The position numbers were made by a program, and so were the translations under genes. Shown here piece by piece: positions 20,539 through 41,293 of a stretch of DNA of 64,000 nucleotides; positions within the stretch are counted from its first letter, which is position 1, and each line of letters begins with the position of its first letter. The notes under the pieces are model-generated. The model had not been told where the DNA came from. It made no database searches and saw nothing but the letters and a program-made list of their open reading frames with translations. Source of the DNA: Gemmatimonadota bacterium (GTDB lineage Bacteria; Gemmatimonadota; Gemmatimonadetes; Gemmatimonadales; Gemmatimonadaceae); assembly GCA_003155795.1 (NCBI GenBank), contig PMEM01000043.1, positions 31,925 through 95,924 of the forward strand, in the 5' to 3' direction.

Positions 20539-23500
20539 ATGCGCACACTCGAGCACGCGCGCGCCAAAGGCCGCGAATACCGCACCATTCTCGGGGCCAA
20601 TCCAGATGGGCTCTGTGGCCGTATCGTGCAACACATCGCTGAGATTTGGGGGATCGAAGCGGTTGCCATCAGTCGTGCTCAGATGGGGGGAAGTGTGGGG
20701 GAGGTTAATCCGAGCTCCGGCGTCCTCAAGTATGACCGTACGCTCTCGGACGCCGATAAACTCGACCTGTTCGCGCACGAGCTTGGGCATCTCGTTCTAC
20801 ACAAGCGACTAACAGATCCAAACATCCCTCGTGACCCGGTGCTAGGCTCTGCCTATACAAATTCCGGGTCGGGGGCAATCGCCCGTTATAGCCCGCGCGC
20901 AATGGAAGAGGCACAAGCCAGCGCGTTTGCGACCGAGCTCATATGTCCGAGTGCCAAATTGTTCGCAGATTGGCGCGCCGAGAACACGGCGACTGCGGCG
21001 TCGCTTGCTGAGCGCTTTGGCGTGCCGGTCAAAGTAGCGCATGCGCAGCTAGCGCATGCGCTTCACGAGTTCGCACTGGGGGCGAATGATCCGATAGCGA
21101 AGCCACAGCGCGCGATCGCGTTTACGCCACGTCAGCTTGAGGCGGCGCGCTTCACCGGGAAGCCTGCCCTTGTCGATGCGGGTCCAGGCACTGGAAAGAC
21201 CGCGACGCTCATCAGACGGATTCAGTTCCTGCTTGAGGAAAGCAGCGCCCGACCAAGCGAGATCCTTGTTCTAACATTCAGCAACGAAGCTGCACAGGAA
21301 CTGCGCGAGCGTGTCACGTTAGCGTTTGGCGCTGACGTGACTGAAGAGATGACAATCGCAACGTTCCATGGCTTTGGAATGACGTTCCTGCATCATCACG
21401 GACAGCATGTTGGCTACGATACTGCCTTCACGATACTAGACGAGGACACACAAGCTGAGCTAGTCACGTCAATCCTTGGAAGGGTGCCGTGCGGCCAGAT
21501 CCTCACGCTCCGAGATCCCCAGGAGACCGTCGATGCAGTTGTAGAGCACATCAATTATTGCAAGCAACGGCTGCGCGACTGTGACGCACTTCAAGAATGT
21601 GTCAGCGCTTGGACACCAACACCTGACGAAACTGACGCGAATGCGGCGTCTGGGCAATTCGCCGGGCTCTATCGCGAGTACGAATCCGCCAAGCACGCAG
21701 CTAAGCAAATCGACTTCGCCGATTTGATCATGTTACCTCTGCGCGTTCTGGAACAGCAACCCGAAATCGCTGCTGCTTACCAAAGCAAGTACCCGTGGGT
21801 GCTAGTCGACGAGTTTCAGGATGTGACCCGCGCCACGTCTCGGCTACTCAGGCAGCTGTGCGGGCCAACCAACCCGCCTTGGGTGGTTGGTGACGCGCGC
21901 CAGGCGATCTATCGCTTCCTGGGTGCAGCGCCGGAAAATGTACGTGAGTTCAGTACAGATTTCCCGGGCGCTGTAGTCTTCGAGCTCGAGGAGAATTATC
22001 GGTCCGCCGCGCCCGTAGTTCGAGCAGCCAATGAGCTCGCGACTCTAATGGAAGATCCGGAGCGCGCCGATGGTCAGGTTTATGAGCGATGGCGGGCGGC
22101 TACCGATCAGACACCGCTCGGCGATATGCCCATCGTAATCGCTGAAGCGACGTCTGACTACGCGGAACGCGAAGGCGTTGCCGATCAAGTGCAAGCCTGG
22201 CTTGAGACTGGACAGGTCACACCTAGCGAGATTGCCGTTCTTGCCAGACGGAACATCGACGTGCGGAATATTATTCTAGCCCTAGCTGCGCGCGGTGTGC
22301 GAGCACAAGCAAGCGGTCTGCTGACCGCTGACGGGGCGGCGGGGGACCTCGCCGCAGCCGTCACCCTGACCGATGCGCCGGTTGCTTCGATCCCACGCGT
22401 CGCGTTTGCGCTTGGCCGGGCGCGGTTCCCAGTAGGCGCCATAAACGCTGTAGTGCATCACGCGCTGGCAACGTTCCGTAAAGACCGTGGGTTCGACATA
22501 GCTGCGCCCGATAGCGGTGCCGAACTCGCGTCAGAAGTTGAGTTTGCTCGGGCGTGTCTCACGCGAGGGCACTTTACCGCCGACGGGTTTGCAACGCTCG
22601 CCACATTCCTCTTCGATGGCGGCTGCTACCTTCGCGTCCTACTTGATGCCGCAGATGGTGCCGAGCGCGCGATGGCACTCATGGAGATCGTAAGCGCGCT
22701 ATCGCTTGCCGTGAGCTACCGCGTCACGCACCCGGCTATGCCGCCTGCGCTTGCCCGAGTTGGCTTCGCCAGTCATCTTCGCGCACGGTTGGCTGAGACG
22801 ACACCGCTTCCGATCGTCGCGCGCGCGCGACCGGACGCCGTTAGGGTAATGACTTGTCATGCGTCAAAAGGCCTAGAGTTCCCCTGTGTCATCGTCGCCG
22901 GCCAAACAGTACCAAAGGCGCGAGCGAAGTACCCTTGGCTCCCACCCTCGTGGCGCCCCGCCACGGACGAAGACGTCGAGCAAGGGGACGCGCTCCTCTT
23001 CGTCGGTGTTACTCGCGGCCAGCGCGCTGTAGTCGTGTCATTCCCGAAGCAGGCAGGAGAGGGAGTACGCGGCCACGCGAAGCAGGTTGTTCGCCTGCTG
23101 GCGCGTTGGCGCGCCGCGCACGAGTTAGAAGTAGTCTCATGGACAGCGAGCGGGAATCCTACCTCCGAAGTCACCGTCGGCCTCATTTGGGGTGGACACA
23201 CACCGGCTGTGCTCAACCTGTCCGCGCTCGACACGTCAACCTGCGCAATTCAGACCTACCTGGAGGAGTTCTTGGGGGTATCCTTCCCGATTGCCGCGCG
23301 CGCACTGTACCCGGTCTTCTTCTCCGTTACGCGCCGCGTCCTTCGGCAGGTCGTCACGCGCGCCAATGAGACAGGACGGCTCGTCGAAGAGGCGGCAGTA
23401 CGTTCGATGGTCGCCGATGCGTGGCCTGAAGGAGAATTCGCTGAGCATCCCCACATTGGGATCTACCTTGATGCGACGCTTCGTATGGTGCTTGATTTCG

Positions 23501-23973
23501 CAAAGTTGTACCGACCTGTAGGAGTGCCGATTACATCGTTCGATCCCGAACTCACCGTTACTGCCGAAGGCGAAGAGCCAGCAGTGCGGCTCGATCTGAT
23601 TGGCCATTTTCTCCAGGCTGATGGGCGCATCGTCGCCCTTAGCTTCCGACCTGAATCACTCGGTGCAGACGCTAAGGATGGGGTTCTTAATTGGAGTGCG
23701 AAGCGCATCAATAGTAAGAAGAGGATGTCTTTCGTACTCCTGGAGCGGCGTACCCCAGGCATACTTCCGCACTTTTTTTCCGGAGCCGACGGGGAGATGT
23801 TCAGTTTCAAGTGGAGCACGCGGAAAGACTCGCTAACGAACGAGACGGCAAAGGTGATCGGTAAGCTGGAGGCGCTCTCGCACGGTGAGTTTGCGACCAA
23901 AATCTCGGCGTATACATGCGACCGCTGTCGCGCTCGTGTTAGCTGCCCTCACTGGGTGGGAGCACTCGGTTAG
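20539..23973 (+). CDS. ImmA/IrrE (M78) metallopeptidase - UvrD/PcrA helicase - Cas4/AddB-type PD-(D/E)XK nuclease fusion
   Basis: 1144 aa. HEXXH in FAHELGHLVLH. Helicase motifs DAGPGTGKT, VLVDEFQDV, ENYRS, CHASKGLEF, VGVTRG. C-terminal nuclease with TSTCAIQTYL and CDRCRARVSC cysteines. Confidence 0.85.
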   Translation: MRTLEHARAKGREYRTILGANPDGLCGRIVQHIAEIWGIEAVAISRAQMGGSVGEVNPSSGVLKYDRTLSDADKLDLFAHELGHLVLHKRLTDPNIPRDPVLGSAYTNSGSGAIARYSPRAMEEAQASAFATELICPSAKLFADWRAENTATAASLAERFGVPVKVAHAQLAHALHEFALGANDPIAKPQRAIAFTPRQLEAARFTGKPALVDAGPGTGKTATLIRRIQFLLEESSARPSEILVLTFSNEAAQELRERVTLAFGADVTEEMTIATFHGFGMTFLHHHGQHVGYDTAFTILDEDTQAELVTSILGRVPCGQILTLRDPQETVDAVVEHINYCKQRLRDCDALQECVSAWTPTPDETDANAASGQFAGLYREYESAKHAAKQIDFADLIMLPLRVLEQQPEIAAAYQSKYPWVLVDEFQDVTRATSRLLRQLCGPTNPPWVVGDARQAIYRFLGAAPENVREFSTDFPGAVVFELEENYRSAAPVVRAANELATLMEDPERADGQVYERWRAATDQTPLGDMPIVIAEATSDYAEREGVADQVQAWLETGQVTPSEIAVLARRNIDVRNIILALAARGVRAQASGLLTADGAAGDLAAAVTLTDAPVASIPRVAFALGRARFPVGAINAVVHHALATFRKDRGFDIAAPDSGAELASEVEFARACLTRGHFTADGFATLATFLFDGGCYLRVLLDAADGAERAMALMEIVSALSLAVSYRVTHPAMPPALARVGFASHLRARLAETTPLPIVARARPDAVRVMTCHASKGLEFPCVIVAGQTVPKARAKYPWLPPSWRPATDEDVEQGDALLFVGVTRGQRAVVVSFPKQAGEGVRGHAKQVVRLLARWRAAHELEVVSWTASGNPTSEVTVGLIWGGHTPAVLNLSALDTSTCAIQTYLEEFLGVSFPIAARALYPVFFSVTRRVLRQVVTRANETGRLVEEAAVRSMVADAWPEGEFAEHPHIGIYLDATLRMVLDFAKLYRPVGVPITSFDPELTVTAEGEEPAVRLDLIGHFLQADGRIVALSFRPESLGADAKDGVLNWSAKRINSKKRMSFVLLERRTPGILPHFFSGADGEMFSFKWSTRKDSLTNETAKVIGKLEALSHGEFATKISAYTCDRCRARVSCPHWVGALG

Positions 23974-24101
23974 CAGATGCGCTAAACGCGGGATTCGGCC
24001 TACCCATCGACGCACATCAGCCTGAGTGCGGCCGTAGGAGGTGTAGGGCGGCCAGAGTGGCTGCTCTGCACCTCTTTCGTTTGTTACTCTGGAGATACAA
24101 A

Positions 24102-24437
24102 ATGACCACAACGGCACACGGCGCAGACGCGTCGCAGGACGAAGCAGGGGACGAGCGCCACGGACCACCGCACGTCCAGCTACAAGTCCAGACCCCACGC
24201 GGGCTCTGGAGCATGACTGAGCCGGAAGAGGCGCCCCGCCGGCCAGACTATCCCATCTCCACAAAGATCCAAGTCGTGATCGACGACGCACGAACAGTCT
24301 TCAAGTTCGTCGAGAATGACAGCAAGTACACTTTGTTCCTGGGTGGAGAGATGCTTGCGCCCGAACGGACGCTCGCGAGCTATCATATTGCGCCCGACGC
24401 ACTCTTGGTGCTCTCCGTCCAAGGTGGGAACGCGTGA
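24102..24437 (+). CDS. bilA: ubiquitin-like beta-grasp protein (Bil-type Ubl)
   Basis: ATG at 24102 with a GGAGA SD. Ends LAPERTLASYHIAPDALLVLSVQGG-NA, which parallels the ubiquitin C-terminus. First gene of the Ubl-E2-JAB-E1 operon. Confidence 0.8.
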   Translation: MTTTAHGADASQDEAGDERHGPPHVQLQVQTPRGLWSMTEPEEAPRRPDYPISTKIQVVIDDARTVFKFVENDSKYTLFLGGEMLAPERTLASYHIAPDALLVLSVQGGNA

Positions 24438-24892
24438 GCGTTCCCGTCTCTCTGTCACTTGAGACCGTGCGCTGCGAACTCGCCGCTGCGACAGCTTATG
24501 CCGCGGCTGCGGGGCTCGAGCTTGATGCCAGTGAATTGAGCGAGAATACGCTTCAGTTTCATGTTGTGTTCTGGAACATGCAGCGCGAGCGATTCACGGC
24601 AGAATTCGATTGTCGTGATTACTCAATGTATCCGCCGACGATTGAATTCGTGGATGCGACCCGCACCCTGCGAGGTACGCCCGCTCTTTATCCAGCAGGG
24701 TTCCATGGAATGCCATGCGTATGCGCGCGCTATAATCGCAAAGCATACACAGAGCGCGGCGGGCCTCACGGAGACTGGCGGCTGGTTGACTGGCAATTAC
24801 CTACCGGCAACGGGGTTGCAATCGACAGTCTGGCTATGATTCTAAGCGACCTTCATAGTAAGATTTCGCAGTCTGCAGGGAGACTGGGATGA
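24434..24892 (+). CDS. bilB: E2-like ubiquitin-conjugating enzyme homologue
   Basis: GTG start overlaps the Ubl stop (GTGA). UBC-like core FTAEFDCRDYSMYPPTIEFV. Candidate catalytic Cys in FHGMPCVCARYN. Confidence 0.75.
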   Translation: MSVPVSLSLETVRCELAAATAYAAAAGLELDASELSENTLQFHVVFWNMQRERFTAEFDCRDYSMYPPTIEFVDATRTLRGTPALYPAGFHGMPCVCARYNRKAYTERGGPHGDWRLVDWQLPTGNGVAIDSLAMILSDLHSKISQSAGRLG

Positions 24893-25422
24893 GTGACAAG
24901 GTCCCCATCATCTACATCCCTGCAACCTTACTCGGTGCCACAGGGATGCTTCTCGCTAGCTTCGCAGAGGAGTTACCCTCCGAAGGCATTGTTTACTGGT
25001 TCGGACTCGAGCTCGGGCCGCGGGCCATCGTGGCGTCGCTCGTCGTCCCAAATGCCGACTCATCTCGTGGAGACATCGTGACTTCAGCTGCCGCGAACGC
25101 TGAAGCACTTGGGGCGGTTGTGGGAACCCCGCTCGTTCTCCTCGGACAAGCTCACTCGCACCCACGCGCGAATGTACGCCACTCGCCTGTCGATGACCGC
25201 GAGACGTACGCGCAGTTTCCCGGTGCACTCTCAGTCGTTGTGCCGTTCTTCAGCCGGAACGGGATCGACCTCTCACGCTGCGGTGTGCATCGTCATCTAG
25301 CGGGCCGGTATCAGCTTATCCCACGCGACCAAGTGCAACAACACGTGAGAGTCGTTCCTGGCATCGTTGACTTCCGGCGTGATCGATTCACTACTGAGAT
25401 GTCCCGTGCACGTGCACTCTGA
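24889..25422 (+). CDS. bilC: JAB/JAMM metalloisopeptidase (deubiquitinase-like)
   Basis: ATGA overlap with the E2 stop. JAMM motif HSHPRANVRHSPVD (HxHx7Sx2D) with an upstream Glu (PSEGIVYW). Confidence 0.85.
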   Translation: MSDKVPIIYIPATLLGATGMLLASFAEELPSEGIVYWFGLELGPRAIVASLVVPNADSSRGDIVTSAAANAEALGAVVGTPLVLLGQAHSHPRANVRHSPVDDRETYAQFPGALSVVVPFFSRNGIDLSRCGVHRHLAGRYQLIPRDQVQQHVRVVPGIVDFRRDRFTTEMSRARAL

Positions 25423-26920
25423 ACAGGCGATAACATCGCCGCTCACGCCGGCCGACCGACTTCGTGTTGCTGATCGCTGGCGGACGGCGGAGTCGTTCTA
25501 CCGGGAGCGCGATGACCGCACCACGCGTAATGTTGGTGACCTCGCGACACACGCGTACCGTGCCGTTGAAATCCACGTCGATCCCGGCGCCGCGGCTAAT
25601 CTCACCGTGCAGCGTATGGCACTCACCGTAGCAAATCTCACCGCCCGTTGGGCGCGTCGGGTGCGTATTGTGCTCGCAGCCGACGCGCCTCTTGCGCCCA
25701 TTCTCCGTCGGGACGGTGCGGCGTGCCTCAGCGATCGACTGATTCGCGAGATGTGCGCGGCTGACCCGTTCGGCGAGTTCAATATAGCTGTGACGGGCAC
25801 AAGTGTCGCCAATGACGGCCGAGCACCGTTACGCCTCTTTGTCGGCCCATGGACGCTCCACCCACAAGCATTGAGCAGTGAAGACTATCAGGTGCACGCG
25901 TCATCGTGGACAGCTTTGGGGAGACGCACGGGAACGCAAGGGCGGCTTCTAGGAATCATGAACGGAGCAGAAGCAACCGCAGCGGCGGCAGGCTTAGCCG
26001 GCGCCCTCGGTGCCGCAGACCTTTTCAAGCGAGCTGTTGGTCACGTCCACGCGAACTGGATGCCTACATTCGCTTGGGATACCTGGGCGGGTATCCTCGA
26101 CACCTCACCGATGGCATGGTCAACGGTTGGACATCGCTCTGTACCGGAGCACTTGGATTTCGGCGAGACTCTGCTCGCGGGCGTTGGTGCGATCGGCTCA
26201 GCTTTTATCTACCTCGCTGATTTTATGCCGCTCAGCGGTGCGCTCACGCTGCTCGACCGAGACGCCATCGAGATCACGAACTTGAACCGAACGCCGCTAT
26301 TTACGGTCATGCACGCGCTCGACGAACCGAAGAAGACGGGAGCAGTTGCTGCGTACCTCACCGGCCGAGGTGTCAAAGTCGAAAGTCTGACGGGACCATG
26401 GCGGGAGCACGCAGCGGCGCTGGCAGAGCGGCCTTTCGACGCTTGGATCAGCCTCATAAATGAAGACGGTGCGTGGGCTGAGGTGCCGTTCCAACTCCCT
26501 CCTGTAGTCCTCCACGGTACGACGACGAGCGGCTGGGGCTTCGGTATGGGGCGACACATCCCAGGGCGCGAGGACTGCACGCTCTGCCGCCTCCCGCGGC
26601 CGGCCACGGAGTTCCGCGGGCCTTGTGCCCAGGGCGAAATCGCCCTGGGTGTGGACCGGGAGCCCGTCCGGGCATCGCTCCCGTTCCTCTCGACGGCGGC
26701 CGCCGCCTTGGTACTTACCGCGTACCTTCAGCTTGGGGAAGGATCTGCTGCGGTGTCATTACCGAACGACGTGTCCGCTGATCTAGGCTCCGGTCTCCCG
26801 GCGCTGATCGCCCTGCATCGTGGTCCAAGCGTGGGGTGTCGAGGATGCCATGCGCAAAGCTCTGTGGCATGGCACTCACGCGGCGGTAGAGGTCGATTCG
26901 CACATTACTCAACCCCGTGA
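25367..26920 (+). CDS. bilD: E1-like ThiF/MoeB-family activating enzyme
   Basis: Rossmann motif LLAGVGAIGSAF followed by LLDRDAIEITNLNRTP. CTLCRLP Cys pair. The roughly 265-aa N-terminal extra domain is consistent with an inactive adenylation domain. The real start may be GTG at 25406 or 25412, overlapping the JAB stop. Confidence 0.8.
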   Translation: MTSGVIDSLLRCPVHVHSEQAITSPLTPADRLRVADRWRTAESFYRERDDRTTRNVGDLATHAYRAVEIHVDPGAAANLTVQRMALTVANLTARWARRVRIVLAADAPLAPILRRDGAACLSDRLIREMCAADPFGEFNIAVTGTSVANDGRAPLRLFVGPWTLHPQALSSEDYQVHASSWTALGRRTGTQGRLLGIMNGAEATAAAAGLAGALGAADLFKRAVGHVHANWMPTFAWDTWAGILDTSPMAWSTVGHRSVPEHLDFGETLLAGVGAIGSAFIYLADFMPLSGALTLLDRDAIEITNLNRTPLFTVMHALDEPKKTGAVAAYLTGRGVKVESLTGPWREHAAALAERPFDAWISLINEDGAWAEVPFQLPPVVLHGTTTSGWGFGMGRHIPGREDCTLCRLPRPATEFRGPCAQGEIALGVDREPVRASLPFLSTAAAALVLTAYLQLGEGSAAVSLPNDVSADLGSGLPALIALHRGPSVGCRGCHAQSSVAWHSRGGRGRFAHYSTP

Positions 26921-26996
26921 ATATGACCCGCAGCGCTCTGGCCAACTCAAGAATATGACGGTTCGGTCACTATCGATCGGACCTAGCATGTCGAAT

Positions 26997-27119
26997 GACA
27001 AAGTCGTTGCGACTAGAGTAGCTAATATCGGCGAAAAGCGTCAAAGTGGTTGCGAATTTGGGTCGCCGCCGGCCAAAGGCGATGCGACTGACCCGCGCTC
27101 GGTCAAAGACGATGCGACC
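26997..27119 (+). repeat. four spaced copies of an 18-bp subterminal repeat (left end)
   Basis: GACAAAGTCGTTGCGACT (26997), GTCAAAGTGGTTGCGAAT (27040), GCCAAAGGCGATGCGACT (27072), GTCAAAGACGATGCGACC (27102). Spacing 43/32/30 bp. Confidence 0.8.
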
Positions 27120-27209
27120 GTCACTACCGGGGTATTTTCTGGTAGATCTTTGTCACCGAATAGACTCAGGATCAACAGGGAGGTGCCCCCACGTTCATAA
27201 ACTGCAACG

Positions 27210-27782
27210 CTAAACTGGCGCAGTGGTAAGGCCCAGTTGGAGCAGAGCTAGTGGTGCAGTAAGAGGACGTGCTTGCCAGAAGCTCCCAAATAACAAGAAC
27301 GGCAAGGCGATAAGTGCGCCCGTAAGTGCACTCGGCTGGATGAGGACTTCGAGCACGAGATCGAAGACCCAAATCCGCCTGAGAGGCTCCAATAGGTCCC
27401 ACGACGAAATCCTATCGCCCTCGTTAGCGGCTGCATACGCGCCGCTCTTCGATATGTCTGCCACCGGGCTGGTCGGTACAGTTTTAGCTACCTCCCGATG
27501 GAACTCGCGTAGGACGGCATATGCTTCGGCGATGTCTTGAAACCTGCGTGTTGCTACGGCACGCTCCCCCGGCGTGAAAAAACGGTCAGGATGGAATCGA
27601 CTAGCGAGAGTTCTGAAGCGTGAACGAATCTCATCAAGACTTGCAGTCGACTCTAGCTGTAATAGGGCGCATGCCTCCACCATATTCATATTGTTACCGG
27701 AAGGTGCGGCGCCCAAGCCTTGCTTGCTATAGAGCGTATTGCCATAAATAGGAAGGCGATCGTTCGACGATCGCCTGACCAC
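27210..27782 (-). CDS. J-domain (DnaJ-like) protein with C-terminal transmembrane segments
   Basis: LDEIRSRFRTLASRFHPDRF...FQDIAEAYAVL has the HPD motif. Hydrophobic C-terminus ALTGALIALPFLLFGSFW. An internal Met start is possible. Confidence 0.7.
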   Translation of the reverse strand: MVRRSSNDRLPIYGNTLYSKQGLGAAPSGNNMNMVEACALLQLESTASLDEIRSRFRTLASRFHPDRFFTPGERAVATRRFQDIAEAYAVLREFHREVAKTVPTSPVADISKSGAYAAANEGDRISSWDLLEPLRRIWVFDLVLEVLIQPSALTGALIALPFLLFGSFWQARPLTAPLALLQLGLTTAPV

Positions 27783-27815
27783 TTCAGCGTTAGCTTAACA
27801 GCATAATCAACGAAA

Positions 27816-28157
27816 CTACCGCGATTGCGTTGGTGGCGCATCGAGAATGTCGAGTCCTACGCCGCCATTTGCCTTGTGATGAAGGATGACATACTTCCCC
27901 GGATACGCCGCGATCGCACCCGCGACGCCAGTGGTCTCGAATAGCGTCATAAGGTGCTCCGGATCGTAGTCTTCCAGTATCGCTCGCGTGATTCGGATCG
28001 TTCGAGTAATTGTCAGCTTGTCGTGCCTCCATGCCAAAACACGAAAGTCAAAGGCAAAGTCGCGCTCTGTCACGGGCCAATCGTGTCCATCGAACCACTG
28101 CGTGATTGCTGCGTCATGCACAGCGAACTTCGCAAATATTGGATCGCTGATCGTCAT
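27816..28157 (-). CDS. hypothetical protein (cargo of the mini-element)
   Basis: 113-aa ORF upstream of and co-directional with the J-domain gene. No recognised motif. Confidence 0.45.
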   Translation of the reverse strand: MTISDPIFAKFAVHDAAITQWFDGHDWPVTERDFAFDFRVLAWRHDKLTITRTIRITRAILEDYDPEHLMTLFETTGVAGAIAAYPGKYVILHHKANGGVGLDILDAPPTQSR

Positions 28158-28451
28158 ACGTTCCTCGATATATAGATCCCATGGTTGTCAACGCTCGAAC
28201 CGCGGTCGGCAGCTAACACATCTAGCGGTGCTCCGCGCACGGGGGGGGCGGCGAAGCTCCGACGGTAGTCGTAATCACAGGGGCGCTGAGACGCTTCGCG
28301 GATCATAGGTGGGAGTGTTGCCACCCTATCAAATCAACTTTGATGTATATGATCGCTGTCGGCTCATACCTAACTTGGCCAGTCCGGAAAATTCTCGTAC
28401 GCTCCGATTAATTCTTGTTTTTCACATCACCGTCAGCCGCAACTGGCAGTC

Positions 28452-28510
28452 AGTTGCAACGACTTTGGCTGTAGTCGCAACGGCTTTGGCCATTTCGCAT
28501 CCTCTTTGTC
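28452..28510 (-). repeat. three tightly packed copies of the same 18-bp repeat (right end, inverted)
   Basis: Reverse complements: GCCAAAGTCGTTGCAACT (28452-28469), GCCAAAGCCGTTGCGACT (28473-28490), GACAAAGAGGATGCGAAA (28493-28510). Period 20-21 bp. Confidence 0.8.
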
Positions 28511-29682
28511 ATCCGACATAGCAATCACTAAGTAAGTATGCAGCAGTCTTCTTTTATTTGCCATCCAATTAGTTGTGTCCGTGCTTGCGAGCTTCTCCGG
28601 CCTCACCCGTTGAGACCAGTGGTCCGATTATCTGTTGTATAAGGCCTTGGGTAGCGCCGGTGTGTGCCTGAAATTCCGGTACCGAAATGCCACCCCTGTT
28701 GAGCCCGCCGTTTGGAATCCTGGGAGCCTGGTTCCCGGGTGGCCGGGAATCCTAAGAGCGGGCTGGGGCGGGGGTTGGGTAGGCCTAACCCTTGGGGGTG
28801 TTTTTGGGAATGGTGGTTGGTCACGGACACAACTTATAATTTCATAGTTCTGCAAAATTGGCGATGAAATAGAACTGAGCAGGTCAGACTTGGCGGAGCA
28901 CGAGGTGCACGGCCGCAACCGACACCACAGAGACAGCCCCGAGCCTGGCCGATTACCCGTCTGTAACTGTCGGATAATTCCGGGATAACCGCCCAGGGCA
29001 CCCAGGGAGAAACAGGTACCGATGGGCGGTGACCCCTCATCCCATCAGTTTCCGGCGGCGACTCGCGTTCCAGTAGCCCATAGCATCCACACATCGAGCG
29101 CCGCACACAGAACTACCCTTCCTGCCATCTCCGCCGGCTTTGAGAGCCACAACGAAAAACGGGGGTATCGCTGGCTAAATGGGGGCAGTACAAGCCGGAT
29201 GGCCACCGCTGCGAGTAGAAGGACGTCTAGCTCTATCCCAGTGTGCCCCAGGAGAATCTCCTTACAGGCTTCCACCTGAATCACCACCCAGCCGCCGGCG
29301 AAACTGTCTGCTACGAGCTTGGCGAGCGACCAAACGGCCGGCAAAGCCAGTGTACGGAGCGAGCGGAAACCGAGCCGCCACGGCTGGAGGGAAGCGGCCA
29401 GCAGAATAACTAGGGCGATTCGGGCAGCAATGTGGAGCATTCAAGCCTCTTTGGTCGGGGAGGCTTTCTACTTATGGGTCTCGGACGGGAGGCAGCAGTA
29501 GGGCCGAGGGTGACCGGTCGCGAGTGTTCTAGCAGTGCTTGACTATCAGAGAGAGGAGGCATCCGCCGCCGGCGCCGGCTACGAGCCAGGACAAGAATTG
29601 CCCCACCGTCCAATCGGAGATGCTTGAGCGCACGGAGTCCCACCAAGCAGTCCTTCCCTTGTTGTCAGCGATCGCGTGAAAT

Positions 29683-31511
29683 GGGGTCTGCTCAGATTTT
29701 GGTGAAAGGTGAGGCGAGGAGTTAGGCTTCAGGGATCGTTTTGGAGGTGCTGCACCACATGGATGCATTGACTGCGAGCCCGCTGTGCCCGTCTCCGCTG
29801 GAGCTACAGCTCGCCGAGATTCGCTTTGCCGCGCCGGAGCTGATCGTCACCGCAACGGCTCGCCGACGAGTGGTCGCCTGCCCCAAGTGTGGCCACGCCA
29901 GCACGCGGGTGCACAGCCGGTACAGTCGGACGCTCTCCGATCTCCCATGGCACGGGCTACGAGTGCGCCTTGACGTCCACGTTCGCCGCTTCTTCTGCGA
30001 TGTACCGGGCTGCAAGCGGCGGATATTCACCGAGCGACTCCCGAAGACCGCCTCCTCCTATGCCCGGCGCACCGCACGTGCAGCGTCGGCGCTGGAAGCT
30101 ATCGGGCTTGCTCTTGGCGGTCGTGCTGGCGCCCGGCTCGCAGCAGCACTGGGTCTCGCCGGTGCTCCATCGGAAATCCTCTCGATCCTATCCGCCATTC
30201 ATGCCGTCGTAAGCGACTGCAGTAGTGACCGCGCTACATCCACTGTGCGGGTGTTGGGCGTGGATGACTGGGCGTGGCGCAAGGGCCAGCGGTATGGCAC
30301 GATCTTGGTCGACCTGGAGCGGCATCACGTAATCGACTTACTACCGGACCGTGAGTCTGACACGCTCGTCGCATGGCTGTGTGCGCATCCCGGGGTCGAG
30401 TTCATCAGCCGGGACCGCGCAGGTGGTTACGCAGATGCTGCAAGGCGCGGAGCGCCCGGCGCCATTCAAATCGCTGATCGTTTCCACCTGCTGCGCAATC
30501 TGACCGATGCCGCACAGCACGCGTTGGAACGACATCACACCATCGTGCGAGCAATCGGTCTCGATGCAAAGCCGCCGACGCCGGTATTGCTGAAACGTGG
30601 TGGCCCTGTGTCACGCCGATGGACACTTGGAGCGAGCGATCTGCCAGCCAATCCACCGAACGATCCGCCGCTCGCGGAACAGCGCAAGCTCGCCCGGCGT
30701 GCTCGGCGACAGTCGCGCTACGACGAGATGATCGCGCTTCGTACGGGTGGCGCGTCGGTCGCGGCCATCCACCGCTCGCTCGGGCTCAGCCGAAAGACGA
30801 TAATGCGCTGGACAGGAGCAGGCGCCTTCCCCGAGCGGCAGCCCGCAGTGAGAAGAGAGACGTCGTTAACACCACACGCTGAGTATCTCGCCGAGCGGTG
30901 GCGTGGCGGATGTCACAACGTGACCCAACTGTGGCGCGAGCTCCGCGACGGGCGCGGATTTCACGGTGGCCTCACCACTGTACTGGCGTGGGCCCGATTG
31001 CATCTGCGTGGAACGGTGATACCGAAGATACCGGAAGCATCGCTCGCGGTGACGGCGCGTCCGACATCACGTCCGTCCTCACGCCGCGCGGCCTGGCTGC
31101 TGACCGCTCCATTGGATCAGCTCAAAGCGCCGGAACTGCGCTACGTCGAGGCGATCTGCACCGAGTCGAGCGCACTTGCTGCCGTGCATAGTCTCGCGAT
31201 GGAGTTTCGCGGTATGCTCAAGACTCATGATCCTAACGCGCTCGCGCTCTCGCTCGATACGGCCGAGCGCAGCGAGCTTCGATCCCTTGCTGCGGGTCTG
31301 CGGCGTGACAAGGACGCGGTGCTCGCAGCCATCCTCTTCCGCTGGAGTAACGGGCAGGTCGAAGGCCAGGTGAACCGGCTCAAGCTCATCAAGCGCACGA
31401 TGTACGGTCGGGCCGGCTTCGCGCTGCTCCGACGACGTGTGCTCGCCGCCTGACTGCAACGAACCCCAACTCCGAGAGGCGAGTGCCTTCATCAAAAGTT
31501 TGTCAGACCCC
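29683..31511 (+). mobile_element. ISL3-family insertion sequence
   Basis: Imperfect terminal IRs of about 26 bp sharing the 8-bp tip GGGGTCTG (29683-29709, and reverse complement of 31486-31511). They enclose a single ISL3 transposase gene. No target-site duplication seen. Confidence 0.8.
29741..31453 (+). CDS. ISL3 family transposase
   Basis: N-terminal zinc finger CPKCGH...RRFFC. DDE region DDWAWRKGQRYGTILVDLERHHVIDLLPDRE. C-terminus NGQVEGQVNRLKLIKRTMYGRAGFALLRRRVL. Confidence 0.9.
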   Translation: MEVLHHMDALTASPLCPSPLELQLAEIRFAAPELIVTATARRRVVACPKCGHASTRVHSRYSRTLSDLPWHGLRVRLDVHVRRFFCDVPGCKRRIFTERLPKTASSYARRTARAASALEAIGLALGGRAGARLAAALGLAGAPSEILSILSAIHAVVSDCSSDRATSTVRVLGVDDWAWRKGQRYGTILVDLERHHVIDLLPDRESDTLVAWLCAHPGVEFISRDRAGGYADAARRGAPGAIQIADRFHLLRNLTDAAQHALERHHTIVRAIGLDAKPPTPVLLKRGGPVSRRWTLGASDLPANPPNDPPLAEQRKLARRARRQSRYDEMIALRTGGASVAAIHRSLGLSRKTIMRWTGAGAFPERQPAVRRETSLTPHAEYLAERWRGGCHNVTQLWRELRDGRGFHGGLTTVLAWARLHLRGTVIPKIPEASLAVTARPTSRPSSRRAAWLLTAPLDQLKAPELRYVEAICTESSALAAVHSLAMEFRGMLKTHDPNALALSLDTAERSELRSLAAGLRRDKDAVLAAILFRWSNGQVEGQVNRLKLIKRTMYGRAGFALLRRRVLAA

Positions 31512-33109: not shown

Positions 33110-34957
33110 ATGCCGGATAATCCCCGAGATGGAGTTTCGGGAACGCGCTCGCAACGACAGGCGCTTTCACAGTTTATGCGATTACTTCGGCTCGCTCATC
33201 CATATTGGGGAGGCCTAACCAAAGGTCTCTTTCTAGGCATCATCTTGGGCTTGCTCGGGCTAATAACTCCCTACGCCTCGAAACTCCTATTCGACAATGT
33301 GTATCCGGCTCGCGACCTAACGCTACTAAACGTCGTCGTCATCGGAGTAGCGGTCATATCTATAACGACCACGACGATGGGGGCGCTACGCGGGTACTAC
33401 GGCCAAGTGGTCACAGGGAAGCTGGGAAGCGCTGTCGGACTTCTGTACTTCAATCATGTACAGCACCTCCCAGTCGCATTCTTTGACGTGCATCGGGTTG
33501 GCGAGGTCATGAGCAGAGTAGGAGACATTCGCACCGCGCTCGGAACCGTCTCCAAGGTTATACAGTCGGTCTTGGTAAATGGCGTTTTTCTCATTTGTGT
33601 TCCACCCTTCTTAATCGCACTCAGTTGGAAGCTCTCGTTGATTGCCGTCGTGACTACACCTCTTACTGTTGGTGTTACTGCGATAACAAGCCGAGCCGTT
33701 CAACGGTACTTTCGACTCAGCGCAGAAGCGTTCGCCGAGCTTAGCGCGATTCAGGTCGAGGCATTCACGCACATTCGCACAATCAAGGCAATGGCCGGCG
33801 AGCACACGTTTTTCGCCAGCGCGCGCGCCCAAACAGTCAGTACGATTCAGGCCCAACTACGCGCGGCCCGCGTCGGCTCGATAGTGACTATTGTTAATGG
33901 GGTCGTGCGCATAGCGGGTACGGGAGTTCTAACCTGGTATGCGTGGCGATTGATCATCGCGGGTGAATTGACGCTGGGGACCTACGTAGCCTTCACGGCC
34001 TATCTCGGCTATCTAACAGGACCAATAGGTCAACTAACGGATCTCTTTTCGGACTTTCAGCAAACGGCAGTCTCTCTTACCCGCGCATTTGAGTATCTCG
34101 ACATTCTCCCTGAGCAGGACCCGCGCCTCGCTTACGTTCCGCCGTCTGCTCCGACCAAAGGTCGCGGTAGTCTGAAGCTAATCGCGGTCAACCTATCCTA
34201 TGGGTCGGGAAGGCCTATCCTAAAAGAGATATCAGCAGTTCTCGAGGCGGGCAGCATCACGGCTATTGTCGGGCCGAGCGGCGCCGGAAAGTCGTCAATT
34301 TTACGTCTCCTCTGCCGCATGAGCGAACCAACTTCCGGGCAAATCTTGTATGGAGACAGCCCCATCAGTGAATTGAAGATTGGCGACTTCCGTCGCGACG
34401 TCGCGGTGGTCTGGCAAGACCCGGCTCTTTTTCGGGGCACCATTTGGGACAACCTCGCAATGGGAACTTTGGCGGTGTCGATGCAACGAGTTCGCGAAGT
34501 GGTGGCACTGTGCCAGCTCGACAGCCTAATTGACGAGCTTCCACAGCGGTACGAAACGCCAGTTGCAGAATGGGGTGCGACTCTATCAGGTGGACAGCGG
34601 CAGCGGATTGCAATCGCACGTGCCCTTCTCCGGGATACCCCGATCCTGTTGCTCGACGAAGCGACCGCGCAAGTCGATGTGAGAATGGAGAGAGAACTAT
34701 TGACGGCGTTGTTGTCGTGGGCGACGACCAAAATCGTTGTAATTGTGACGCACCGCGTCACGACCGCAGCGATAGCCAATCAGATCTGCGTTGTGGAGGC
34801 GGGGAGAATTACGGCTTCCGGTACACACGAAACGGTTACGGCTGCGAGTCCGATGTATCGCGAATTATGGCAGGCAGCACAAGCAAGTGACACCTTTGCG
34901 GTTGATTGTCCTACAGGAATATTGCGCGCGCGCGACGGGTTGCCTGCGTTCGGGTGA
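33110..34957 (+). CDS. ABC exporter (fused permease/ATPase, no peptidase domain)
   Basis: Six-TM ABC_membrane-like N-terminal half. Walker A GPSGAGKSS, signature LSGGQRQRIAIARAL, Walker B ILLLDEAT. Confidence 0.85.
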   Translation: MPDNPRDGVSGTRSQRQALSQFMRLLRLAHPYWGGLTKGLFLGIILGLLGLITPYASKLLFDNVYPARDLTLLNVVVIGVAVISITTTTMGALRGYYGQVVTGKLGSAVGLLYFNHVQHLPVAFFDVHRVGEVMSRVGDIRTALGTVSKVIQSVLVNGVFLICVPPFLIALSWKLSLIAVVTTPLTVGVTAITSRAVQRYFRLSAEAFAELSAIQVEAFTHIRTIKAMAGEHTFFASARAQTVSTIQAQLRAARVGSIVTIVNGVVRIAGTGVLTWYAWRLIIAGELTLGTYVAFTAYLGYLTGPIGQLTDLFSDFQQTAVSLTRAFEYLDILPEQDPRLAYVPPSAPTKGRGSLKLIAVNLSYGSGRPILKEISAVLEAGSITAIVGPSGAGKSSILRLLCRMSEPTSGQILYGDSPISELKIGDFRRDVAVVWQDPALFRGTIWDNLAMGTLAVSMQRVREVVALCQLDSLIDELPQRYETPVAEWGATLSGGQRQRIAIARALLRDTPILLLDEATAQVDVRMERELLTALLSWATTKIVVIVTHRVTTAAIANQICVVEAGRITASGTHETVTAASPMYRELWQAAQASDTFAVDCPTGILRARDGLPAFG

Positions 34958-35048
34958 CCGCCTGGCGCGGATGGCTCAACACAAGCTCCTGGCTAGAAGC
35001 ACGAGTAGTGTATCGACCACACACTGTCGTTGAACTCTAGGAGAAAAG

Positions 35049-37034
35049 ATGGTGCTTCCAACATTGCTGGAGAAAGATCAACGCGCACTTAGCGATGTCG
35101 CCTCTGACATTGGCGAGCAGCTGTGTCGTGCGGCACTCATCGATGGCAAGACGCGGCACTGGCCGCGTGATTCACCAAGAGATATTCAACCAAACTCGCA
35201 CGACCCAGGCGATGCGACCGTATACGCGGGAAGTGCGGGCATATCTATTGTCCTGGGCGAGTTGTTACGCGCGGAGGGGTCAACAAGAATAGAGGAGGTC
35301 GCAGTCGGTGCTCTTAGACATGCGCTCGAATCCGACAGCACGGTCCTTCCAAGTCATTGTGGCTTCTTTAATGGCCGAGTCGGTTCTGCATACGCGGCCT
35401 TCCGCGTGGGAGAAGCCGCCGGAGATCCTACCTTTATCGAGCGCGGTCGTCGCATTGTGGACGAGCTTCACGGACATGAGTCCGAGGATTACGGAATTGA
35501 TGTCATCTCTGGGGCTGCTGGCGCAATTCCGGTTCTGCTTCGCCTCCAACGCGAGTTCAACATAGATGTAGCTGGCGCCGTAGCGGTCGGACTCGGCGAC
35601 AATCTGCTCGCGCGCGCACGGAGGGAACCGACTGGATGGTCCTGGGATTTCGCGTCAATTTCTTCGGTCCGAAACCTGTCCGGTTTCGCCCATGGCGCAT
35701 CGGGTATCGCCAGTGCTCTTCTCGACTTGTTCGATACAACTGATGACACAAGATATTTATATGCAGCCGAACAGGCTCTCCTGTTCGAGCGTCAGTTCTT
35801 CAATCACCAACTGTGTAATTGGCGCGACAATCGCCATTCAGGAATCCTCCAATTGCAAGAAGCGCACGGCATTGAAGGCGTAGCAGGATTCTTGTCAGCT
35901 GGCGGGAAACTCAAGCCCTACGAACCCTCCTATTCATGCGCTTGGTGCCATGGAGCTCCGGGCATGATTGACGTGCGGCTCCGCATTGGCCTTTTGCTCC
36001 ATGAGCCAACTTGGCTTGAAGAGGCACGCCTAGCCGAAACACCAGTAACTGCGTCGCTCTATACGACAACAAATTACTCTCTATGCCACGGCTCACTTGG
36101 GAACGCAGAGGCTTTGTATCGTGCGGCGCGCGTGTCAGGCGACGTCAGGCTCGGACAAGATATCTTGACATGGTCTACTCAAATACCGACGTGGCATGAG
36201 TCACCAACGCTGAATTGGCGGCCGTCTGGCGCTGCCGCCGACACGGATAAGGTAGAATACTCACTTATGCTCGGTCTCGCTGGTGTGGCTTACTACTGTC
36301 TCATGCTTGCCAATCCCGATGTGCCGTCAATCTTATTCCCGGGAGGGGCGGCAGGTTCTCGTTCTGAACGTGCGGAAAAGTGGCGCGACGGCTGCGACGC
36401 CGCATACTGTGACCACTTCTTTCGTGAAAGTATTCGCATTTCTTCCAGTCTAGGTAATGCGCTCAATCCAACCCGGGTTCCCGGCAACAATAGTTCCGCG
36501 CCACGGGAGCTTTACGCCTCGTTGCTAGGCGTACTGACGGCGGCGGAAGGAGTAACTACCGCTCTCTTACAAGACGCGTCAGCGATTGAACGAACACGAT
36601 TCCTTCTAGAAGTCGACTCTGAAGATCACTTAAGCGACAAGCTCGAGCGGCTTTACAGCGAAGCAGTAGGTGAGCGATGGCGTAACCTGCCGTTACGCGT
36701 GGCTCCGGGAGTGCGCGTGGTCGAAACGGACTACGATTGGGCCGAATGGTCACAACAGTCAGAGGCAGATCGCCCACCAGTGCCCCGGGCCGTCGCTCAG
36801 ACTCACCTGCTCGTGTGGTCACATCGTGGTGTAGCGCAGTACAAGATAGACGAGTTGTCAGCCCAGCTTATCGCATACATGGATCGTCCATACGTGTTAA
36901 AGGATCTATTGGACGAGACGGGTGTGGCGGACGGCGAAACGGACGAGTTGAAAGTACGCGCTGCCGTCAGTCGTGCCGTTGAGCAACTATATGCGGTTGA
37001 CGCATTGATCATTGATATTCCGCTGTTCGAGTAG
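35049..37034 (+). CDS. lanC: LanC-like lanthionine cyclase with roughly 220-aa C-terminal extension
   Basis: GFAHGASGIASAL, AWCHGAPGM and SLCHGSLGNAEAL match the LanC His and Zn-ligand motifs. The extension is beyond normal LanC length. Confidence 0.8.
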   Translation: MVLPTLLEKDQRALSDVASDIGEQLCRAALIDGKTRHWPRDSPRDIQPNSHDPGDATVYAGSAGISIVLGELLRAEGSTRIEEVAVGALRHALESDSTVLPSHCGFFNGRVGSAYAAFRVGEAAGDPTFIERGRRIVDELHGHESEDYGIDVISGAAGAIPVLLRLQREFNIDVAGAVAVGLGDNLLARARREPTGWSWDFASISSVRNLSGFAHGASGIASALLDLFDTTDDTRYLYAAEQALLFERQFFNHQLCNWRDNRHSGILQLQEAHGIEGVAGFLSAGGKLKPYEPSYSCAWCHGAPGMIDVRLRIGLLLHEPTWLEEARLAETPVTASLYTTTNYSLCHGSLGNAEALYRAARVSGDVRLGQDILTWSTQIPTWHESPTLNWRPSGAAADTDKVEYSLMLGLAGVAYYCLMLANPDVPSILFPGGAAGSRSERAEKWRDGCDAAYCDHFFRESIRISSSLGNALNPTRVPGNNSSAPRELYASLLGVLTAAEGVTTALLQDASAIERTRFLLEVDSEDHLSDKLERLYSEAVGERWRNLPLRVAPGVRVVETDYDWAEWSQQSEADRPPVPRAVAQTHLLVWSHRGVAQYKIDELSAQLIAYMDRPYVLKDLLDETGVADGETDELKVRAAVSRAVEQLYAVDALIIDIPLFE

Positions 37035-37059
37035 CGCTCTCACGGGGCGAAAACTTTGT

Positions 37060-39039: not shown

Positions 39040-39232
39040 TCCCGGCGTCAGCGACGCTCACCACCACCGTCATTAGACGCTGTGGCCCACCGAGTGCTAA
39101 AGATTTGGGCGCGCGCTAGACCTGAGCAAAGAGCCGACCGATGTTCGGCCAACTTGAATCGCACGCGTTGTCGGATGTTACGCAGACATCGATTTTGTTG
39201 TCTCTTAGTACCGCCCGGACGCTAGATCACCG

Positions 39233-39856
39233 TTAGACTATACGATCGATTCCGGACGTGCGTTTGACAAATAAATGTTCCGCGCGCCTGCGGATGATGG
39301 GACGTTGCTTATACGCTTGTATCGCGGAAACGAGATCGGACATTTTGCACCTGTAGCCCTTCGCAGCGTATCGATGGGTTCGGCATAGGCATTTTAAGGT
39401 GCTAACGTTATTTGGATTCGACTTGCCAAGGATGCCGGCAGCGAAGCATTCTAGAGTGTTTGCGCCTACAAAAAGGACGTTGTCGCCTAAACTGTAAACC
39501 AGCGCTGATATTTCAAAATCCTCCAAACGTGATAGCAAGTGCCGCGCATCACGGAACACTGCTTTGTTTACATCTATCGTAGTGTAGTTGACTTTGCCTG
39601 TCCCACAATCTTGCAATGCGTATCGTCTCCCGCGCAGCGAGTTAAGTCGCTTCTGATCTTCACTGTTACCCGCAGCGATATCCACGTCTCCAAACGGCTC
39701 GGCTCCCGTTAGACAGTGCCGTATGTAGCCCCCGTACAAGTACATAGAGCGAACGCCAAGGCCGGCTATACCTGTAACTGAGAGTAGACGTCGAACTCCG
39801 GCGGCTAGTCGAGGAAATTCGTCCAACCGCCGTATCTCTAGCGGAGACTGATCCAT
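39233..39856 (-). CDS. minimal CCA-adding-enzyme/poly(A)-polymerase-like nucleotidyltransferase
   Basis: MYLYGGYIRHCLTGAEPFGDVDIAA matches the GGxVRD...DxD head-domain motif. LEDFEISALVY resembles RDFTINAL. Confidence 0.6.
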   Translation of the reverse strand: MDQSPLEIRRLDEFPRLAAGVRRLLSVTGIAGLGVRSMYLYGGYIRHCLTGAEPFGDVDIAAGNSEDQKRLNSLRGRRYALQDCGTGKVNYTTIDVNKAVFRDARHLLSRLEDFEISALVYSLGDNVLFVGANTLECFAAGILGKSNPNNVSTLKCLCRTHRYAAKGYRCKMSDLVSAIQAYKQRPIIRRRAEHLFVKRTSGIDRIV

Positions 39857-39898
39857 ATAGTTGCGTTTGAGTCGCCATGCAAGTTCGCATTCGCTGCG

Positions 39899-40438: not shown

Positions 40439-41293
40439 TCGTTGGCGCCCGCCATTTAGTGGTCTGCCTCTTATCCGACTTCCAGCCATACTAAGGTGGA
40501 GTTGAGCTCCCGTTATTGCAAGACCTTGACGTCCCACCGCAAAATGGGTCTAAGGTTAAGTTAACCCGGGTCTGGCCGCACCCGAACTACGGCGAGAGCT
40601 AGGGTGAGTTGGGCATGGTTTCGAAAGCTTCGACGCTAAGGTCCGCGCCAGATCTCGACTGCTGTGAGCCCCGATTAGACGGGACGCTCTGGGAAGGTAG
40701 TTTCACTTCTCAGAAGGGGCTATCTCAATGGAGACACATCGGCGCGGTGCAGATGGCAGGGAATCAACTGACTCGATCGGGGTACCGCTCAGCCGGAGCG
40801 ACATCATCCGCCTTCAATCTGTATCGTGTCACTGGTTACTCCAAGCGGCTCCGCCACATCGCGCTGCCGTAAGCCAAGTGCCATCCGCCGGTTCCGGACT
40901 GATCTCCAATCGTCTTCGGGTCCCCGCGCTTACGCTGGCCGAACCTAGCGCGACGCGGGGACTGCCAGCGTTATTGGTGAAGATCGCCCAGTCGATGATG
41001 CTGGTTCACCCTCCCGACGCTGACAAGCCCGAAAACCTGATCGCATCAATCGATGCGGCGCTTGCAACCGCGAAGTTATAGCGAGTCGATTGTATGACGT
41101 GTGTTGCGAATATTGGCTGGTGGCGGCGACCCGTCTTTTTGATTGGCCAGCGGAGTTTGAGGCAACAACAGCAAGAGTCGTTGTGCCTCCGACTCTCGCC
41201 AATGACGAAGATGGACAAACAGGCACTGTCGAAAGGACCTACGCAAGCTGCCGCCCGTCGAGACCGGCGAGTCCGCGAGACTGCTGGCGAAGT

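Follow-up and report, generated by a model that had tools for sequence, protein, structure and literature searches.

A transposase-less 1.5-kb element with Tn7-like ends in a Gemmatimonadota contig, a probable natural counterpart of mini-Tn7

The 64,000-nucleotide stretch of contig PMEM01000043.1 from a Gemmatimonadota bacterium that is analysed here (positions 31,925 to 95,924; the window) contains a 1,530-bp segment that lies between two copies of a pentamer and carries two small genes. The locus raises the question of whether this segment is a mobile element and, if so, which proteins would move it. An earlier note on this DNA, made from the sequence alone, had proposed a non-autonomous transposon of the Tn7/Tn402-Tn5053/Mu group that is mobilised in trans. 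The analysis reported below makes it very probable that window positions 26989-28518 are a non-autonomous transposon of the Tn7 family, a natural 'mini-Tn7' or mobile insertion cassette (hereafter the mini-element). Its parts are listed here in the order of their coordinates.

26984-26988 (no strand): left copy of the 5-bp target-site duplication TAGCA, read directly; the same flank and duplication occur in the independent 100-kb contigs L004 and L005
26989-28518 (+): the whole element, 1,530 bp, very probably non-autonomous and Tn7-like; 100% identical over exactly these bases in L001 and L004-L012, where the flanks differ
26989-27180 (+): left-end module, from a motif scan: 8-bp tip TGTCGAAT, four spaced 17-nt TnsB-type sites (predicted) and about 60 bp more common to a larger element described below
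26997-27013, 27040-27056, 27072-27088 and 27102-27118 (+): the four left-end sites, at offsets 9, 52, 84 and 114
27124-27145 (+): terminator-like hairpin with a T-rich tail, just inside the last left-end site, from a consensus scan only
27210-27689 (-): cargo gene 1, encoding a J-domain protein of 159 aa (Pfam DnaJ, E 7e-11) whose C-terminal segment is hydrophobic
27816-28157 (-): cargo gene 2, a 113-aa protein of a small family (54 clusters at 50% identity)
28360-28426 (-): conserved sub-terminal block of the right-end module, about 65 bp, 84-90% identical in the related loci L014, L015 and L016, whose cargo differs
28453-28518 (-): right end, from a motif scan: three abutted 17-nt sites and the 8-bp tip TGTCGGAT, read inward
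28494-28510, 28474-28490 and 28453-28469 (-): the three right-end sites, at offsets 9, 29 and 50 from the tip (period 20-21 bp)
28519-28523 (no strand): right copy of the duplication TAGCA, read directly

Rereading the window bore out the coordinates and sequences that had been claimed for the TAGCA duplication, the inverted TG…CA termini and the boundaries of the segment. The tips read TGT…ACA, with TGTCGAATGACAAAG at 26989-27003 (+) and TGTCGGATGACAAAG at 28504-28518 (-), and the terminal inverted repeat extends over 25 nt at 84% complementarity. When the 15-mer tip was searched with up to two mismatches, the two element ends were the only matches in the 64 kb (0.24 expected). The 17-nt motif GNCAAAGNNGWTGCGAM, searched with the same tolerance, occurs eight times in the window against 2.1 expected, a count reached in none of 100 shuffles. 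Seven of these eight matches fall within the element, four on the plus strand (starts 26997, 27040, 27072 and 27102) and three on the minus strand (28453, 28474 and 28494), confirming the four spaced and three back-to-back repeats reported previously; the arrays are asymmetric, spaced at one end and abutted at the other. The element thus comprises a left-end module of about 190 bp, a two-gene cargo of 1.15 kb and a right-end module of about 160 bp. In pairwise comparison of five left ends of the family, conservation is 94% at the fixed motif positions and 74% in the spacers, which is the pattern of protein-binding sites under selection. No Tn7-type gene (TnsB, TnsC/TniB, TniQ/TnsD or TnsA) was found between the ends or anywhere in the window, and because no transposition gene lies between its ends the element is non-autonomous. 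The open reading frame (ORF) of the upstream E1 protein (ThiF/BilD) ends at 26920, and the left tip follows 68 nt after this stop, the distance given in the earlier note.

Copies of the same unit occur elsewhere. A scan with the 24-nt tip pattern against one genome per species returned three loci (L001, L002 and L003), the last of which, from Chthoniobacterales, was discarded because its match falls by chance within a gene and is accompanied by no further sites. L001, a contig of a Gemmatimonadetes metagenome-assembled genome from palsa peat, starts exactly at the left tip and carries the 1,530 bp at 100% identity; beyond the element lies a TetR-OEP efflux operon unrelated to the window context. 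An exact look-up of the 113-aa cargo protein gave 18 contigs, those examined being peat-type metagenome assemblies, and the element is present at 99.9-100% identity in L001 and in all ten of these contigs that were compared, both cargo ORFs being identical in all copies. Extraction of the flanks yielded three left and three right sequences.

Left flank A: …GGACC TAGCA, the window context, downstream of bilD
Left flank B: …CGGCTCT CACTG, inside tnsB
Left flank C: the right end of a 91%-related element (R', contig L007), then CACCC
Right flank A': TAGCA ATCAC…
Right flank C': CACCC TCTCAAATAAAC…, upstream of TetR
Right flank D': CACCC, then the left end of another identical copy

The duplications match on the 100-kb contigs (TAGCA/TAGCA, A with A') and on L007 (CACCC/CACCC, C with C'). 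Identical copies in at least three unrelated contexts indicate recent movement, and the recurrence of the unit at 100% identity, bounded exactly by the tips, in other contexts places the element boundaries beyond chance. These observations also bear on the proposal that the repeats are operator sites of a fixed genomic island, the TAGCA match being coincidental and the segment immobile. Such a reading could draw on the TetR regulator gene that adjoins the right end in L001, L002 and L014, and on the fact that no empty site was found for the window copy. It is refuted by the identical copies in several contexts, which share the same two boundary bases and carry different 5-bp duplications, together with the uninterrupted site of copy B described below; moreover, no TetR gene lies next to the element in the window. 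We give it next to no credence.

In short contigs the flank pairs are mismatched, for example A with C' and B with A' (mismatched duplications in L009-L012), and L013 is a chimeric switch between the left end of the larger element described below and the mini-element. The inconsistency arises because short-read assemblers cross a 1.5-kb repeat, and therefore only flank pairs with matching duplications were trusted. The same demonstrable chimeras would be the basis for regarding the whole multi-context picture as an assembly artefact, with one true locus and a set of misjoined short-read contigs. This is very improbable: chimeras through a repeat need the repeat at several loci first, in many assemblies and samples, independent of one another, each of three distinct left flanks runs exactly up to the tip, the duplications match on both sides at sites A and C, and an empty site in a related lineage pins down site B. 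Searches of the plasmid collection, by megablast of the element and flanks and by distant blastn of each end, gave nothing meaningful, and the viral contigs held no match to the tip pattern or to the predicted empty site of the window copy.

Site B links the mini-element to transposition genes. The stop codon of a TnsA-like gene (301 aa, Pfam PF08722) precedes flank B by 15 nt. A search for homologues of this TnsA led to a 93%-identical variant (P0007) on contig L022, which is 89% identical to contig L006 at the nucleotide level over 1.8 kb, the homology ending exactly with the last base before the left tip. At site B, L022 is uninterrupted (…ATGAAGCGGCTCT CACTG GTTGCTGG…) and continues …CACTG GTTGCTGGCG… without the element; L030, from a second lineage, has the same uninterrupted site with CGCTG at the position of the duplication. 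The earlier note's search for an empty site thus succeeded for copy B (L022/L030 against L006/L023) and gave none for the copy in the window. L022 itself ends, at about 1927-1959, in the Illumina adapter AGATCGGAAGAGCGTCGTGTAGGGAAAGAGTGT, so that its last 45 or so bases and the C-terminal part of a 39-aa gene call are not genomic.

The gene interrupted at site B overlaps the stop of the TnsA-like gene by ATGA, and its first 351 aa contain HTH_29/HTH_32 domains. The protein is 26% identical to Tn7 TnsB (E 9e-15), in an alignment that spans the first catalytic aspartate (IDHT/IDAT) and a LVIDVYTRMILGF/IVIDVFSRMITGF block. Its best matches in the PDB are Tn6677 TnsB (9e-20), the PseCAST TnsA-TnsB fusion, the TnsB chains 7svw, 8rdu and 8aa5, Tn7 TnsB and ShCAST TnsB, with one chain whose sole annotation is integrase also among the top ranks. 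The interrupted gene is, on these comparisons, a tnsB homologue. TnsB homology and the empty site together place copy B in codons 5-6 of tnsB, with the duplication CACTG. We reconstructed the site-B junction from window positions 28219-28518, CACTG and L030 from position 1014; the sequence across the right end and the site-B flank is CTTTGTCATCCGACACACTGGTTGCTGG. In the tnsB frame the right end has no stop over 49 codons and places a TTG five codons before the junction (…TTG TCA TCC GAC ACA / CTG GTT…), and the insertion removes five tnsB codons only, MKRLS being replaced by (M)SSDT. Because only five codons are lost and the right end supplies an in-frame TTG, the interrupted tnsB may still be translated. 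A fusion of the 70-aa ORF at 28309-28521 with tnsB was considered and rejected, since that ORF is in the wrong frame; another frame, that of the TTG, is in phase.

To place the element within its group, the real Tn7 on plasmid R721 (NC_002525.1) was measured as reference.

Tip and first site: Tn7, TGTGGGCG then GACAAAA… at both ends; mini-element, TGTCGRAT then GACAAAG…
Site offsets at the spaced end: Tn7, 9/73/129; mini-element, 9/52/84/114
Site offsets at the abutted end: Tn7, 9/29/49/70; mini-element, 9/29/50
Duplication: Tn7, 5 bp, GTGCG; mini-element, 5 bp, TAGCA

The two share the TGT…ACA tips, an 8-bp tip followed by a site that starts with GACAA, and the 20-21 bp register of the abutted sites. 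Furthermore, the right end of the mini-element faces the gene at a recurrent TetR site, as the right end of Tn7 faces glmS. The mini-element differs from Tn7 in having no tns genes, in its size (1.5 kb against 14 kb), in its four left and three right sites where Tn7 has three and four, in the site sequence GNCAAAGNNGWTGCGAM and in its host, a Gemmatimonadetes-type soil bacterium; its tandem and nested copies also suggest weak or absent target immunity. Duplications of 5 bp recur in the family, with TAGCA in the window, CACCC in L007 and TCGAG in L016, L014 being the exception. The cruder hallmarks are common to Tn5053/Tn402, IS21 and Mu as well, and it is a TnsA gene next to the transposase gene that sets Tn7-like elements apart. 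Because TnsA adjoins TnsB and the tip and site geometry matches that of R721 Tn7, the broader grouping of the earlier note is supported and can be narrowed to Tn7-like.

An element of the Tn5053/Tn402 (TniA), IS21 (IstA/IstB) or Mu-like family, moved by the corresponding enzyme, is an unlikely alternative, for which some points can nevertheless be made. The tip TGTCG and the layout presumably resemble the 25-bp repeats of Tn402; IS21 forms tandem copies and has repeated sub-terminal sites; and binding of the 17-nt sites by TnsB is a prediction only. On the other side, the sole matching large end found goes with a TnsA-like gene overlapping the TnsB homologue, TnsA being what defines Tn7-like elements, the offsets 9/29/50 and the start 'tip plus GACAA' match directly measured Tn7, and none of the fetched loci contains IstA/IstB, TniA/TniR or MuA genes. 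Tn5053/Tn402 elements encode TniA/TniB/TniQ and the TniR resolvase, have no TnsA and insert into res/par sites; membership of that family was rejected, given that the TnsA-like gene of the large element overlaps the transposase gene and that the targets are intergenic or genic, not res. IS21 membership was likewise rejected, as no IstA/IstB was seen in any fetched locus and the associated transposase matches TnsB structures best.

The Tn7-like assignment leaves the source of the transposition proteins to be considered. A second left end, in the same orientation, lies 10.2 kb upstream of tnsA on L023 (from a 26.5-kb contig) and L024. This end (L023 676-868) has the tip TGTCGAATGACAAAG and four sites at the same 43/32/30 spacing as in the mini-element, to which it is 88% identical over 192 bp, with differences at 8 of the first 130 positions. 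It is flanked by AGGAC and partly keeps the terminator-like hairpin at 27124-27145. No right end was found between this left end and tnsA, and the simplest reading of the order is one large element with the left end, defence-like cargo (minus strand), tnsA, and tnsB with the mini-element in it. The cargo (L023 895-9725; also L024 and L006) comprises a 199-aa protein, a GAP1-N1 protein (815 aa), two DO-GTPase1/2 proteins, a 351-aa protein, a Metallophos phosphoesterase (weak PADLOC match to PDC-S60) and an S24-like protein of 216 aa, which appears as a 153-aa S24-peptidase-like ORF in L006; it appears to be a defence island within a Tn7-like element.

According to the mechanism that we propose, a TnsB-type DDE transposase acting in trans would bind the 17-nt sites and, with TnsA, would cut the element out at its TGT…ACA tips; the element would then be joined to the target with a 5-bp stagger, the repair of which would give the 5-bp duplication that is itself observed. 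The helper would be a larger Tn7-like element of the same peat metagenomes that encodes TnsA and TnsB, and it is rather probable that the large tnsA-tnsB element found here, or an intact sibling of it, supplies these proteins to the mini-element. The missing transposase, claimed earlier, and the identical copies at several sites are observed, and mobilisation in trans is what we infer. TnsC and TniQ would be expected in the helper by analogy with the relatives of its TnsA and TnsB, which carry TniB(TnsC) and TniQ in L031 and on the Xanthomonas campestris plasmid NZ_CP066989.1. These tnsA-tnsB-tniB(tnsC)-tniQ elements have the same order of overlapping tnsA and tnsB; the helper TnsB shares 36% identity over 343 aa with the Xanthomonas protein, and the helper TnsA 35% with P0008. 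The candidate helper differs from them in having 10 kb of defence-like cargo that separates its spaced-site end from tnsA, in an operon that reads away from this end and in the length of TnsA (301 aa against about 220 aa), and the ends of the L031 and Xanthomonas elements showed no GNCAAAG-type sites.

A real non-autonomous transposon could also depend on another, unseen family member, for instance R' or a copy elsewhere, and not on the L023 element. The L023 tnsB is interrupted in every contig seen, the L023 left end departs from that of the mini-element at the 8 positions mentioned, and the right end of R' is 91% identical to that of the mini-element; the duplication of R' is CACCC, against AGGAC at the L023 left end, so that at least one more family member exists. 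R' itself, however, has about 600 bp of non-coding repeats and no tns gene in the 785 bp that were covered, no other source of TnsB was found in the loci examined, and the L023 tnsB, having lost five codons and gained an in-frame TTG, may still be expressed. We regard this alternative as possible, though doubtful. The large tnsA-tnsB element, or a sibling of it, is the helper assumed in what follows.

The sites at which family members are found were compared next to one another, and three lineages have different members upstream of orthologous TetR genes.

L001/L007: J-domain element, 77 nt between its right tip and the TetR start codon ATG
L014: methyltransferase element, 80 nt between its right tip and the ATG
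L002: remnant, 71 nt between its right tip and the ATG

In each of them the right (abutted) end is gene-proximal; L002 and L014 may share ancestry. In the L007 lineage a single pentamer, CACCC, stands between R' and the mini-element, between the mini-element and TetR and, at junction D', between two identical mini-elements. The reuse of one pentamer with fixed orientation suggests a TniQ/TnsD-type attachment site upstream of the TetR/outer-membrane efflux operon, common descent with rearrangement being the alternative; no TniQ was seen in the loci examined. Since the window copy, copy B and L016 occupy unrelated sites, there must also be a second pathway of lower specificity, or simply relaxed targeting. 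Two independent assemblies (L011 56-60 and L012 66-70) contain a junction between two identical mini-elements, 'right end - CACCC - left end', which could be a true tandem formed by reuse of the pentamer, a circular form or an assembly artefact.

Several observations weigh against the reading of an active, helper-driven Tn7-like element. All 10 contigs with the exact TnsA carry the mini-element inside tnsB, and no intact helper was seen in this population; insertion into tnsB should disable the helper. The right half of the helper (the rest of tnsB, tnsC/tniQ and the right end) was not recovered, and an exact look-up of the partial TnsB of L030 found no entry in the collection. The autonomous master element that the earlier note had suggested looking for would be represented by a larger element with an 88% identical left end and tnsA-tnsB, of which one half was recovered and the tnsB is interrupted wherever it was seen. 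The tns operon of this helper reads away from the spaced-site end, opposite to that of Tn7. No empty site was found for the window copy, as each of the 12 contigs that encode the identical E1 protein either has the element or breaks off at it. Short-read contigs across the 1.5-kb repeat are often chimeric (L009-L013). L014 is flanked by the 7-bp repeat CGAGACG (2076-2082 and 3467-3473), not by 5 bp. Finally, DNA already bearing Tn7 ends is avoided by Tn7 (target immunity); head-to-tail ends only 5 bp apart (R-CACCC-L and R'-CACCC-L, short-read junctions that could include artefacts) and a mini-element copy 10.2 kb inside the candidate helper are not expected under immunity of this type. The findings that the earlier note had named as fatal to its proposal (repeats acting as operators in related genomes that lack any empty-site polymorphism, neither another copy nor a cognate transposase anywhere, or true ends elsewhere than at TAGCA) were none of them observed; the sibling copies that it had proposed to search for exist, identical ones at three or more sites and relatives with other cargo.

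A bolder reading of the same data is that the family consists of cargo-swapping 'mini-Tn7' shuttles that are hyperparasites of their own helper, keeping end modules only, exchanging cassettes, piling up at the TetR site through the same 5 bp and inserting into tnsB. We put this forward tentatively, as one possibility. If true, it would define a branch of Tn7-like elements without effective target immunity, for which the copies 5 bp apart and the copy in the putative helper constitute a natural test, and it could reveal a widespread, uncounted layer of Tn7-driven gene flow. The literature that was consulted gave no description of compact, tns-free, cargo-swapping Tn7-like shuttles. Surveys of Tn7-like elements have been seeded from TnsB/TnsC/TniQ proteins (e.g. 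PMC8649781), and transposase-less derivatives are therefore invisible to them. The window case argues for the existence and activity of such derivatives, with a cargo that can be swapped. It also points to the region upstream of a TetR/outer-membrane efflux operon as a candidate for a new attachment site, and the two end modules with a fully recovered helper would make a compact natural donor design for a phylum without genetic tools. The mechanism would be conventional, that of an ordinary Tn7-family end pair, with the life-style of a mobile insertion cassette.

Other defective or transposase-less elements offer a comparison. Class 1 integrons and other defective Tn402/Tn5053 derivatives have intact ends and no working transposition genes, and need proteins in trans. 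Degraded array-targeting Tn7-like elements are thought to move only with proteins from a related element (PMC11837452). Both belong to the same superfamily as the mini-element and have likewise kept their ends without working transposition genes; they are decayed full-length elements with tns/tni remnants, whereas the mini-element is a compact two-module shuttle with none. Laboratory mini-Tn7 vectors have the same design, two Tn7 ends flanking a cargo with the proteins supplied in trans, the window element differing in having arisen naturally and in spreading in a wild population. Mobile insertion cassettes, such as MIC231 of IS231, and miniature inverted-repeat transposable elements (MITEs) are transposase-less, carry the ends of an autonomous relative and are mobilised in trans. 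The mini-element resembles the cassettes in being a transposase-less unit with passenger genes; it differs from both in that they derive from single-transposase insertion sequences with simple inverted repeats, while its ends, asymmetric and with multiple sites, are those of a heteromeric, target-selecting transposon. MITEs are small (usually under about 600 bp) and non-coding, a label that was rejected for a 1,530-bp element with two ORFs, one of them with a clear J domain; mobile insertion cassette fits better.

The relatives L014, L015 and L016 came from the metagenome scan and, together with the other loci, show that the family cargo is J-domain plus 113-aa, methyltransferase, or none. L016, a 1,514-bp element with homologous ends and an S-adenosylmethionine (SAM)-methyltransferase as cargo, is inserted at a further site, where its TCGAG/TCGAG duplication is perfect. 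L014 has the same methyltransferase cargo and adjoins the TetR orthologue; a further, truncated right-end remnant lies to its left (1998-2075). L002 is a remnant without a left tip. The closest left-end relative of the window element, 90% identical, is that of L015, from a 22.9-kb contig; a homologue search with the 166-aa cargo of L015 returned, among the contigs whose DNA could be read, short ones only. L015 378-3068 also includes a degenerate right end (tip TGTCGTTTCTCAAAG) with the conserved sub-terminal block, 180 nt upstream of a MacB/FtsX-type efflux permease gene, so that a right end again faces the 5' end of an efflux-related gene, and 5 bp (GGGGC) after this degenerate right end comes the 90%-identical left end, which belongs to another family member. 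The R' element stands head-to-tail with the mini-element at the TetR site of L007. Its repeats (L007 4240-4584) form a direct pair, each about 174 nt long and 84% identical to the other (GTGGGGAAACAATAAAG…CTGTTTGAGAACGTTCAG), and contain no ORF. Rfam had no match for them or elsewhere on L006 and L007, the interior of R' resembles none of the other loci, and a 46-aa C-terminal fragment of R' used as query gave no candidate.

Both cargo genes of the mini-element are on the minus strand and read inward from the right end. As stated previously for this DNA, and as borne out by Pfam, no transposase lies between the ends and the cargo consists of a J-domain protein with a hydrophobic stretch and the 113-aa protein. 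In the former, hydropathy reveals a single strongly hydrophobic C-terminal stretch (aa 108-140); its NCBIfam matches are at the level of the J domain, and it is called as 159 aa in public contigs. The 113-aa protein has no Pfam, NCBIfam or PADLOC match. Its domain lies C-terminal to a TIR_2 domain in the 457-aa homologue P0106 and occurs in nine stretches of the 1,665-aa homologue P0093, which hints at a module of conflict or signalling systems. The conserved block at 28360-28426 precedes the cargo operon by about 200 bp and may be a promoter or 5' leader module, although a sigma-70 scan found nothing in the block and nothing above shuffled expectation in the end modules.

The mini-element lies just downstream of a region (20539-26920) that looks like a defence island. 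This region encodes a 1,144-aa UvrD-type helicase with an N-terminal M78 peptidase domain, whose best PADLOC matches are GajB, ORFs of 111/126 aa and 152 aa, BilC (24889-25422) and the BilD E1 protein (25406-26920); BilC and BilD make up a ubiquitin-like conjugation system of the Bil type. An inverted repeat (28702-28764) with 22-nt arms (77% complementary) and a 19-nt spacer lies some 180 bp beyond the right end of the element. An ISL3-family transposase gene (DDE_Tnp_ISL3 and zinc ribbon; 29741-31453) follows 1.2 kb to the right of the element, its DDE domain being matched in two stretches with weak HTH_7/HTH_23 matches between them. Lanthipeptide-type biosynthetic genes flank these features at 33110-52349.

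33110-34957: ABC exporter
35049-37034: LanC-like
37012-39039: erythromycin-esterase-like
41294-44008: S41 peptidase
44499-45713: HlyD
46202-48187: C39-ABC
49089-52349: LanB dehydratase

Elsewhere the window contains methylase, SLT, SNF2 and Cas4-like genes and, taken together with the lanthipeptide-type genes, it looks like part of a plasmid or of an integrative and conjugative element (ICE).

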